Of a stretch of 5,948 bases of DNA, positions 3,902-5,948 are shown one piece after another. Within the stretch, counting starts at the first letter, position 1. Every line of letters starts with the position of its first letter. Made by a program: the position numbers and the translations under genes. The stretch spans positions 1 to 5,948 of the IMG/VR virus record IMGVR_UViG_2529292869_000005; one strand, 5' to 3'. Under the pieces are notes generated by a model, which worked only from the letters and a program-made list of their open reading frames with translations, made no database searches and was not told where the DNA came from. The stretch comes from a virus (Duplodnaviria; Heunggongvirae; Uroviricota; Caudoviricetes).

Positions 3902-4465
3902 GTGCTGACAACGCAAAAACGAAAATTTGCGCTGGCGCTCATGTCCGGGAAAAACAAAACAGCGTCAGCCCTTGCCGCCGGTTATTCGGCGAAGACAGCC
4001 AGGGTTAAAGGCTCGCAGCTGGCAAAAGATCCTGAGGTGCTTGCGTTTATAGCCCGTAAACAATGCGAGACGGTGGAGGTGGATGAGGTTCCTGTTTACC
4101 GGCAGAAAAAATCAGAGCAGGAGGATAAACCCCGTCGCCGTGAGGCGGCTGCAATACCACAGCCGGACGAAAACAATCTGGAGATGCCACCGTCCGCGGT
4201 GATGTCTCCTGGTATTGAATATATGGAGGATGGTCTTCCCGATCCGGTGAAAGCCATGGGGCGGATCCTGGTGGAAAACCTCTGCATTGATCCGAAACTG
4301 GCACTGGATGCGGCCTGGCGTCTGGCGCAGTTCACGCACCACAAAAAAGGGGATACCGGGAAAAAATCGGCAAAAGGTGATGCCGCGAAAAAAGCGGCTA
4401 ACCGTTTTGCGGTGCCACCGCCACCCCGACTGGTGGTGAATAACGATAATGAGGGCAACGGATGA
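3902..4465 (+). CDS. Terminase small subunit (187 aa), GTG start
   Basis: Strong SD GGGAGGAGG at 3891-3899 then GTG 3902. N-terminal HTH-like region (KRKFALALMSGKNKTASALAAGYSAKTARVKGSQLAKDPEV) typical of P27-type small terminases; acidic/basic C-terminal tail. Stop TGA 4463-4465 overlaps the terL ATG 4462 (ATGA). Confidence 0.82.
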   Translation: MLTTQKRKFALALMSGKNKTASALAAGYSAKTARVKGSQLAKDPEVLAFIARKQCETVEVDEVPVYRQKKSEQEDKPRRREAAAIPQPDENNLEMPPSAVMSPGIEYMEDGLPDPVKAMGRILVENLCIDPKLALDAAWRLAQFTHHKKGDTGKKSAKGDAAKKAANRFAVPPPPRLVVNNDNEGNG

Positions 4466-5948
4466 TACCTGTATGGAGCACAGCCTGCCCGGACTGGGCA
4501 GAGCGCCTGAAAAAGGGGCTGTCGATTATTCCGGATCCGATTTATCCGGACGAGGCCGCACATGCCCTGGCGATTTTTAAACAACTGCGGATTGTGGATG
4601 CACCTGGAGCCCGACGTTCGGGGAGTCCTGCGCACAGTGGGTGTTTGACCTGGTGGCGGCCCTGTTTGGCTCCTACGATGCGCAGACCGGTGTACGCCAT
4701 ATCAAGGAAGTTTTTATCCTTATCCCCAAGAAAAACAGCAAGTCCACGCTGGCTGCCGGGATCATGATGACGGCGCTGTTACTGAACTGGCGGCAGGCGG
4801 CGGGCTACACCATTCTGGCCCCGACCGTGGAGGTGGCGGCTAACGCCTTCAACCCTGCCAGGGATATGGTACGACGGGACGATGATCTGGATGACCTCTG
4901 TCAGGTGCAGACACATATCCGGACCATCACCCACAGGGTGACGGACACCACCCTTAAGGTGGTGGCTGCCGATCCGAATACGGTATCCGGTATCAAGTCC
5001 GTGGGGACGCTGATTGATGAACTGTGGTTATTTGGCAAGCAGTACAAAGCGGAGGACATGTTACGTGAAGCCATAGGCGGCCTTGCCTCCCGCCCGGAAG
5101 GGTTTCGTGGTGTATACGACCACCCAGTCGAATGAAACCGCCCGCCGGGGTGTTCAGACAGAAACTGCAGTACGCCCGGGATGTGCGCGACGGCAAAATT
5201 CATGATCCGCACTTTCTGCCGGTGATATTTGAACACCCTCCTGAAATGGTGGAAAGCGGGGCTAACCTGCTGATGGAAAACCTCGCCATGGTCAATCCGA
5301 ATCTCGGCTATTCAGTGGATGAGGCCTTTCTGTACCGGGAGTACCGTAAAGCCCGGGAAGCCGGTGAAGAGACATTCCGGGGGTTCATGTCAAAACACGC
5401 CAATGTGGAAATTGGTCTTGCCCTGCGCTCTGACCGCTGGGCGGGGGCTGATTTCTGGGAAGAGCAGGGCCGTTGTATCAGCCTGGACGATATCCTGCGT
5501 CGTGCTGATGTGGTGACGGTGGGGATTGACGGCGGAGGGCTGGATGATCTGCTGGGGATGTATGTGATTGGGCGTGACCGGGAGACCCGCGAATGGCTGG
5601 GCTGGGGCCATGCCTGGGCGCATGAAACCGCGGTGGTCCGACGGAAGAGCGAGGCGTCCCGGTTTCAGGATCTTGTTGCCTGTGGAGATATGACCATTGT
5701 CCGGCGTGTCGGGGATGACACGGCGGAAGTGGCGGAATATGTGCGTCGCATTCATGAGGCTGAGTTACTGGACCATATCGGTATTGACCCGTCAGGGGTG
5801 GGGCAGATTCTGGATTCACTGGCGGAAGCCGGGATCCCCGACGGAATTGTGGTGGGGATAAGCCAGGGCTGGAAACTGGGCGGGGCCATTAAAACCACCG
5901 AGCGCAAACTGGCTGAAGGGGGGCTGGTGCATGGTGACCAGCCCCTGA
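4462..5948 (+). pseudogene. Terminase large subunit, HK97-like, disrupted by three frameshifts (near 4606-4610, 5103-5106 and 5134-5137); 3' end runs off the window
   Basis: Protein-like reading switches frame three times: frame 1 (MIPVWSTACPDWAERL...RIVDAPG), then frame 0 ([21 protein letters not shown]...[11 protein letters not shown] Walker A...[10 protein letters not shown] Walker B...ASRPEGF), then frame 1 ([10 protein letters not shown], the terminase TT motif), then frame 2 (PPAGVFRQKLQYARDV...NPNLGYSV...VTVGIDGGGLDD nuclease domain) open to base 5948. Off-frame continuations are Arg/Pro/Ser-rich junk. Confidence 0.7.

Follow-up and report, generated by a model that had tools for sequence, protein, structure and literature searches.

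EHEC genomes fragment owing to the great similarity among lambdoid prophages (PMC7175801). The draft genome of Escherichia coli O157:H7 strain LSU-61 (AEUC00000000) was released by Rump et al. in 2011 (PMC3309690), and the strain was later closed by PacBio sequencing (chromosome CP038336; PMC7175801). The sister drafts of the 2011 study, H2687, 493-89, and G5101, are listed as "454 Draft" (PMC7175801, tables S1 and S2); given this listing, the LSU-61 draft reads were most likely 454 reads as well. For LSU-61, table S1 of that paper gives the read accessions SRR1576589 and SRR1576590. The stretch of DNA analyzed here in full (5,948 nucleotides; referred to as the window) is identical in sequence to the entire 5948-bp contig AEUC01000141.1 of GCA_000187385.2, and both of its ends fall within phage genes. 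Here, we compared the window with 30 homologous copies, comprising a 26-copy panel and four copies from the closed LSU-61 record (NZ_CP038336.1). The latter are named below by their chromosomal positions: 5.13 Mb (L029), 2.62 Mb (L030), 1.32 Mb (L031), and 2.56 Mb (L032). The 5.13 Mb copy is the syntenic locus, with the same gene order as the window (esterase-S-RrrD-Rz-PerC-YlcI-HNH-terS-terL), and it is the only one of the four compared LSU-61 loci to carry the PerC gene.

The end of the window is occupied by the first 1487 nt of terL (4462..5948, plus strand), the gene for an HK97-type large terminase (PF03354; PDB 6Z6D), which is truncated by the contig end 176 nt short of the end of the gene. 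As deposited, terL consists of four frame segments from the ATG at 4462, separated by three frame changes: frame 1 (modulo 3) at 4462-4767, frame 0 at 4641-5135, frame 1 again at 5083-5205, and frame 2 from ~5132 to the contig end. The original prediction had described terL as broken by three frame changes, and this was confirmed by six-frame translation, by the list of open reading frames (ORFs), and by base-level alignment. The window lacks the one continuous ORF of ~553 codons that the four compared closed LSU-61 copies possess. The further claim that the pieces belong to one HK97-type large terminase gene also held; a two-gene reading of the terL pieces was ruled out because the homologues are single-frame. 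When the three lesions were repaired, terL encoded a stop-free product of 495 aa that was 3 to 5 residues off intact 553-aa TerL proteins and 97 to 99% identical to 553-aa TerL proteins of E. coli. The repaired protein matched PF03354 (TerL_ATPase; E = 1.8e-11; 44.5 bits versus a cutoff of 23.7) and aligned with the HK97 TerL structure PDB 6Z6D (E = 1.5e-9) up to residue 534. In this alignment, the three motifs named in the original prediction found their counterparts: Walker A (PKKNSKS) pairs with HK97 ARKNGKT, Walker B (IDELW) with ILDE, and VVYTTTQS with LIVISTQ. PF20441 (TerL_nuclease) was not reported on the 495-aa repaired fragment, whose gene is cut by the window end, and is carried by full-length homologues 97 to 99% identical to the repaired TerL.

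Alignment with intact homologues taken from complete E. coli genomes placed the three lesions at single-base level. At the first site, one base is absent between 4607 and 4608 (CCTGG^AGCCC in the window versus CCGGGCAGCCC, CCTGGTAGCCC, or CCGGGTAGCCC in the references). The second site is an additional C at 5106, directly after TTT (GGGTTT[C]GTGG). At the third site, the run at 5135-5137 contains an additional A (GAATGAA[A]CCG versus GAATGAACCG or GAATGAGCCG in the references). The missing base and the extra A had both been foreseen from the sequence; the extra base at the second site had been called as a T in the run and is instead a C that follows it. Both of the later sites had also been attributed to homopolymer runs, an attribution that held for the third site alone, the only homopolymer change among the three terL sites.

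Outside terL, the neighboring genes had been regarded as intact. For S, R, Rz, Rz1, PerC, YlcI, HNH, and TerS this was borne out, their lengths being equal to those of annotated intact homologues; the esterase gene with which the contig begins, in contrast, is frameshifted at position 7. There, AA in 9 of 9 panel copies and in the four closed LSU-61 copies is reduced to A in the window (positions 7 and 8). This -1 change, 7 nt into the contig, puts the SASA/DUF6645 esterase gene out of frame and probably reflects an error in the consensus at the contig end.

We then asked how the window relates to the prophages of its own strain. Relative to the syntenic 5.13 Mb copy, the window carries 163 substitutions. 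The four compared LSU-61 copies are pairwise 94.2 to 100% identical, and tiling the contig requires at least four LSU-61 prophage copies. All tiles lie on the plus strand. The first (1..1161; 3' end of the esterase gene, spacer, and holin) is identical to the 2.56 Mb copy save for the -1 at position 7; within it, 681 of 681 nt at 480-1160 are identical to the closed LSU-61 genome, the sole 100% match, with several homopolymer runs included. The second (1162..3201; RrrD lysozyme, Rz/Rz1, PerC, and YlcI) follows the 5.13 Mb copy save at 1992, 2137-2138, 2269, and 2430. The HNH endonuclease and the adjoining spacer (3202..3773) follow the 1.32 and 2.56 Mb copies, with a blended 2-nt deletion at 3729; further spacer and the start of terS (3774..4032) follow the 5.13 Mb copy; and the remainder of terS with the first 150 nt of terL (4033..4612) follows the 2.62 Mb copy. 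Within terL, the source changes to the 5.13 Mb copy for the Walker A and Walker B region (4613..5135), back to the 2.62 Mb copy (5136..5638), and finally to the 1.32 and 2.56 Mb copies (5639..5948). The last tile includes 5922G, which is a genuine LSU-61 variant and not an error; the stretch at 5600-5948 is 100% identical to the closed LSU-61 genome.

From 2431 to the end, tiling on the closed-genome copies leaves zero substitutions across seven alternating segments drawn from three distinct sequences. Over the whole contig, the residual differences from the tiles amount to five indels (7, 3729, 4607, 5106, and 5135) and five point differences within 1992-2430. The bases at 1992, 2137-2138, 2269, and 2430 occur in none of the four compared LSU-61 copies, and the closed LSU-61 genome is absent from the best 60 records for 1980-2445. 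These bases probably come from further lysis-region copies or are errors; nine holin-region matches are present in the closed genome. The small terminase gene terS (3902..4465, plus strand) is itself uninterrupted and joined from two LSU-61 prophage copies, and its exact protein was found in 22 contigs, each shorter than 10 kb, and in none of the closed genomes.

Two features of the HNH region in related copies deserve mention in their own right. In the PerC-type prophage of the finished genomes, a 10-nt direct repeat (CCGGAGGTGT) in the HNH endonuclease gene has lost one of its copies, both in L029 (5687-6037; LSU-61) and in L016 (8751-9101; O55:H7 RM12579). The loss corresponds to window positions 3565-3574 and alters the C-terminal tail of HNH, and the gene is annotated as a pseudogene; the loss is hidden in the window because the window HNH derives from another copy. 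If the HNH tail matters, cos cutting by the PerC-type prophage might be impaired, with HNH rather than terL as the cause. Between HNH and terS, a poly-G tract (3619-3630) varies in length across copies and strains, from about 6 to 10 G.

The terL indels fall where the contig changes source. The first switch within terL is confined to 4606-4612, a 7-nt interval that contains the first site; across the seam (4605..4613, plus strand), the window passes from the 2.62 Mb copy (T at 4605) to the 5.13 Mb copy (G at 4613). The base lost here is the sole position at which the two source copies differ (GGT at 2.62 Mb versus GGC at 5.13 Mb), and in the window the T upstream of it comes from one copy and the G downstream of it from the other. 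The second switch is confined to 5049-5135, with the second site (5106..5106, plus strand) and the third site (5135..5137, plus strand) inside. The third site coincides with an A/G difference between the source copies, the window reading AAA, the 2.62 Mb copy AA, and the 5.13 Mb copy AG. At 5106, no polymorphism was seen among the four compared LSU-61 copies. We considered and rejected a mixture of TTT and TTC alleles at this site, as there is no TTC allele in 1188 matching E. coli records or in the four LSU-61 copies; the extra C may simply be an ordinary read error at a seam of thin coverage. Had three indels been scattered randomly over 1487 nt, the 7-nt interval would have received one and the 87-nt interval two with a probability of ~5e-5, a value calculated post hoc.

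A similar event was observed in the HNH-terS spacer (3727-3731). At 3729, within a few bases of another switch, the window lacks 2 nt, a deletion private to it. In the window sequence (TGTCGGCA), the C and G runs are as long as in the 5.13 Mb copy (TGTTCGGCC), and the bases themselves are those of the 1.32 Mb copy (TGTCCGGGCA). The deletion is another blended-consensus error.

We conclude with high confidence that the window is a chimeric consensus of collapsed repeats, and neither a pseudogene nor part of a cryptic prophage. In LSU-61, the lysis-to-terminase regions of five lambdoid prophages are 94 to 100% identical, and in the model that we propose, the 2011 assembler merged reads from several of these near-identical prophages in a single consensus. 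The consensus tracks one copy over a few hundred bases before jumping to another. Where the majority source changed and the alignment columns were mixed, the caller would have dropped or duplicated a base, as a pyrosequencing flow-signal consensus might be expected to do at a 50/50 base difference. The three terL frameshifts are seam errors of this kind. The original prediction had offered local indel errors in the assembly as one of two explanations, and this one was upheld: it had named an unbroken ORF in an independent assembly as the sign of an artefact, and the closed genome gives an uninterrupted terL, including in the syntenic PerC-type prophage. It is prophage blending, and not simple homopolymer miscalls, that explains where the indels lie.

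Five terL matches were found in NZ_CP038336.1. At four of these five (5.13, 2.62, 1.32, and 2.56 Mb), terL is an annotated coding sequence of 1662 nt encoding 553 aa with no internal stop. Every examined LSU-61 copy of terL thus encodes an intact 553-aa HK97-type large terminase. Indel errors could be present in the closed genome too, as it is PacBio based, but error is unlikely to have produced four ORFs of 1662 nt without interruption. The other explanation originally offered, in which terL has decayed and the prophage is cryptic and packaging defective, is contradicted by these four intact genes. For window positions 4570-5170, the best match in the closed genome is only 99.0% identical (600 versus 601 nt), from which it follows that no closed-genome copy, the fifth match included, holds the window indels. 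The best match for 3700-4606 is 99.1% identical, and LSU-61 is absent from the top matches both for the entire window and for 1-2600; together with the 99.0% match, these results indicate that no single closed-genome locus equals the contig.

The same picture emerged from broader searches. This terL is present in ~1250 of 5426 complete E. coli genomes. The best terL matches in these ~1250 genomes span 1548 nt, the span of the intact copies, versus 1549 nt in the window, and those listed are annotated as terminase large subunit; the three indels together account for the 1-nt excess of the window. None of the three terL indels occurs in any of the 26 panel copies or in any of the four closed LSU-61 copies. 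The 164-aa fragment ORF created by the first and second sites was found only in this contig among 153 billion gene positions, and the 101-aa terL fragment had no exact-protein record; such uniqueness does not by itself distinguish an error from a private mutation. A closer natural terL allele was not found in a search of 5.8 billion proteins or in the contigs of the best match, which is a fusion of TerL with a tape measure protein that differs by 32 nt. The repaired frame differs from L013 by 30 nt and 3 aa, and, as judged from these sequences, it shows signs of purifying selection without relaxation. Relative to the panel, the private changes in the well-covered stretch at 3250-5948 are four indels and no substitution (5922G being excluded as an LSU-61 variant). 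Natural mutation is dominated by substitutions, and an all-indel spectrum is typical of sequencing or consensus errors.

Several related prophages carry lesions of their own in the terminase-portal region. In L014 (3669-5912) and L015 (3433-5676), TerL is fused in frame to the C terminus of a tail tape measure protein, giving a 747-aa product; the fusion is a prophage deletion remnant and is present in both the NCBI and the Logan assemblies. The terL gene is split into 465- and 90-aa parts in L026 (7217-8877) and L027 (7218-8878), two copies from one complete genome (CP010304.1), and is interrupted by an IS in another genome (L024, 7219-10194). The lesions of L024, L026, and L027 lie in finished assemblies and are candidate terL defects, either real or long-read errors. 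Downstream of terL, the portal gene is annotated as "frameshifted" in L029 (10767-13188), L030 (10627-12716), L001 (8937-11521), and L013 (11341 onward); it is intact in L031 (9738-12317), is represented by two ORFs (454 and 461 aa) in the draft L004, and forms a single ORF in the other copies. The portal frameshift could be a recurrent real polymorphism or the product of long-read indel errors.

Among the alternatives, we considered that the deposited terL is a real pseudogene, in which case three frameshifts would have inactivated a recombinant terL and left a packaging-defective cryptic prophage, either as one of the LSU-61 prophages or in a part of the 2011 culture that was later lost. The frameshifts are, after all, present in the deposited sequence, and defective terL genes occur in related strains (the IS insertion in L024, the 465- plus 90-aa split in L026 and L027, and the tape-measure fusion in L014). 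However, neither the indels nor the A/B/A mosaic is found in any closed-genome copy of the same strain, and the indels sit at copy switches, where homologous recombination would not be expected to produce them. The purely indel character of the private changes in 3250-5948, the lack of relaxed selection in the repaired frame, and the uniqueness of the fragment ORF also weigh against a pseudogene. We consider this reading very unlikely.

Random 454 miscalls in homopolymers, in a contig that otherwise represents one prophage faithfully and is not chimeric, would be a simpler source of error. The change from AA to AAA at the third site and that from AA to A at position 7 are both typical of pyrosequencing, and the sister drafts were 454 drafts. 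However, no single LSU-61 locus matches the contig, given the distance from the syntenic copy and the number of copies needed to tile it; the first and second sites involve no change in homopolymer length; and single-copy stretches such as 480-1160 are error free. Miscalls without chimerism are thus extremely improbable.

There is a similarly slight chance that the 2011 culture held a real recombinant prophage that is absent from the 2020 PacBio stock, in which gene conversion between resident prophages was accompanied by error-prone repair at the tract ends that hit terL. If true, the seam-linked frameshifts would record mutagenic recombination between prophages. Finally, programmed ribosomal frameshifting or another form of recoding could in principle join the terL segments, which jointly make a complete protein, but nothing else speaks in its favor, three shifts of mixed sign would be required (+1 across the first site and -1 at the second and third), inspection of the sequence found no classic slippery heptamer at any site, and neither the 30 copies compared nor the best-matching sequences in ~1250 other genomes, where the protein is encoded in one frame, have the indels, so that recoding has next to no probability.

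A chimeric consensus built from several LSU-61 prophages therefore remains our interpretation of the window, and it calls for caution: draft contigs of poly-lysogenic genomes, EHEC included, can blend several prophages, and frameshifts in such blended contigs are open to being misread as gene decay or as cryptic prophages. Scans for broken genes should begin by asking whether the contig in question is a short one, whether repeats flank it, and whether the same strain has a finished genome. In the present case, the finished LSU-61 genome settles the matter, with terL intact.

Set against known systems, the terL of LSU-61 encodes nothing out of the ordinary for the HK97-type TerL of EHEC lambdoid prophages, and there is no novel biology. 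The gene order (HNH-terS-terL-protease/capsid-portal) is shared with EHEC lambdoid and Stx-type prophages, and there is no biological difference from their HK97-type TerL, the three indels being confined to the deposited draft. The genuine terL pseudogenes of cryptic prophages present the same superficial picture, a broken terminase beside intact lysis genes; those, however, are reproduced in finished genomes with a clear lesion, whereas the finished LSU-61 genome lacks the lesion seen in the window. The closest likeness is to the collapsed-repeat or chimeric contigs of EHEC O157 drafts. Like them, the window represents a multicopy repeat, ends within repeats, hops between copies, and has its errors at copy differences. 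Regions of this kind usually just break the assembly, whereas in the window the blended consensus mimics a decayed gene.
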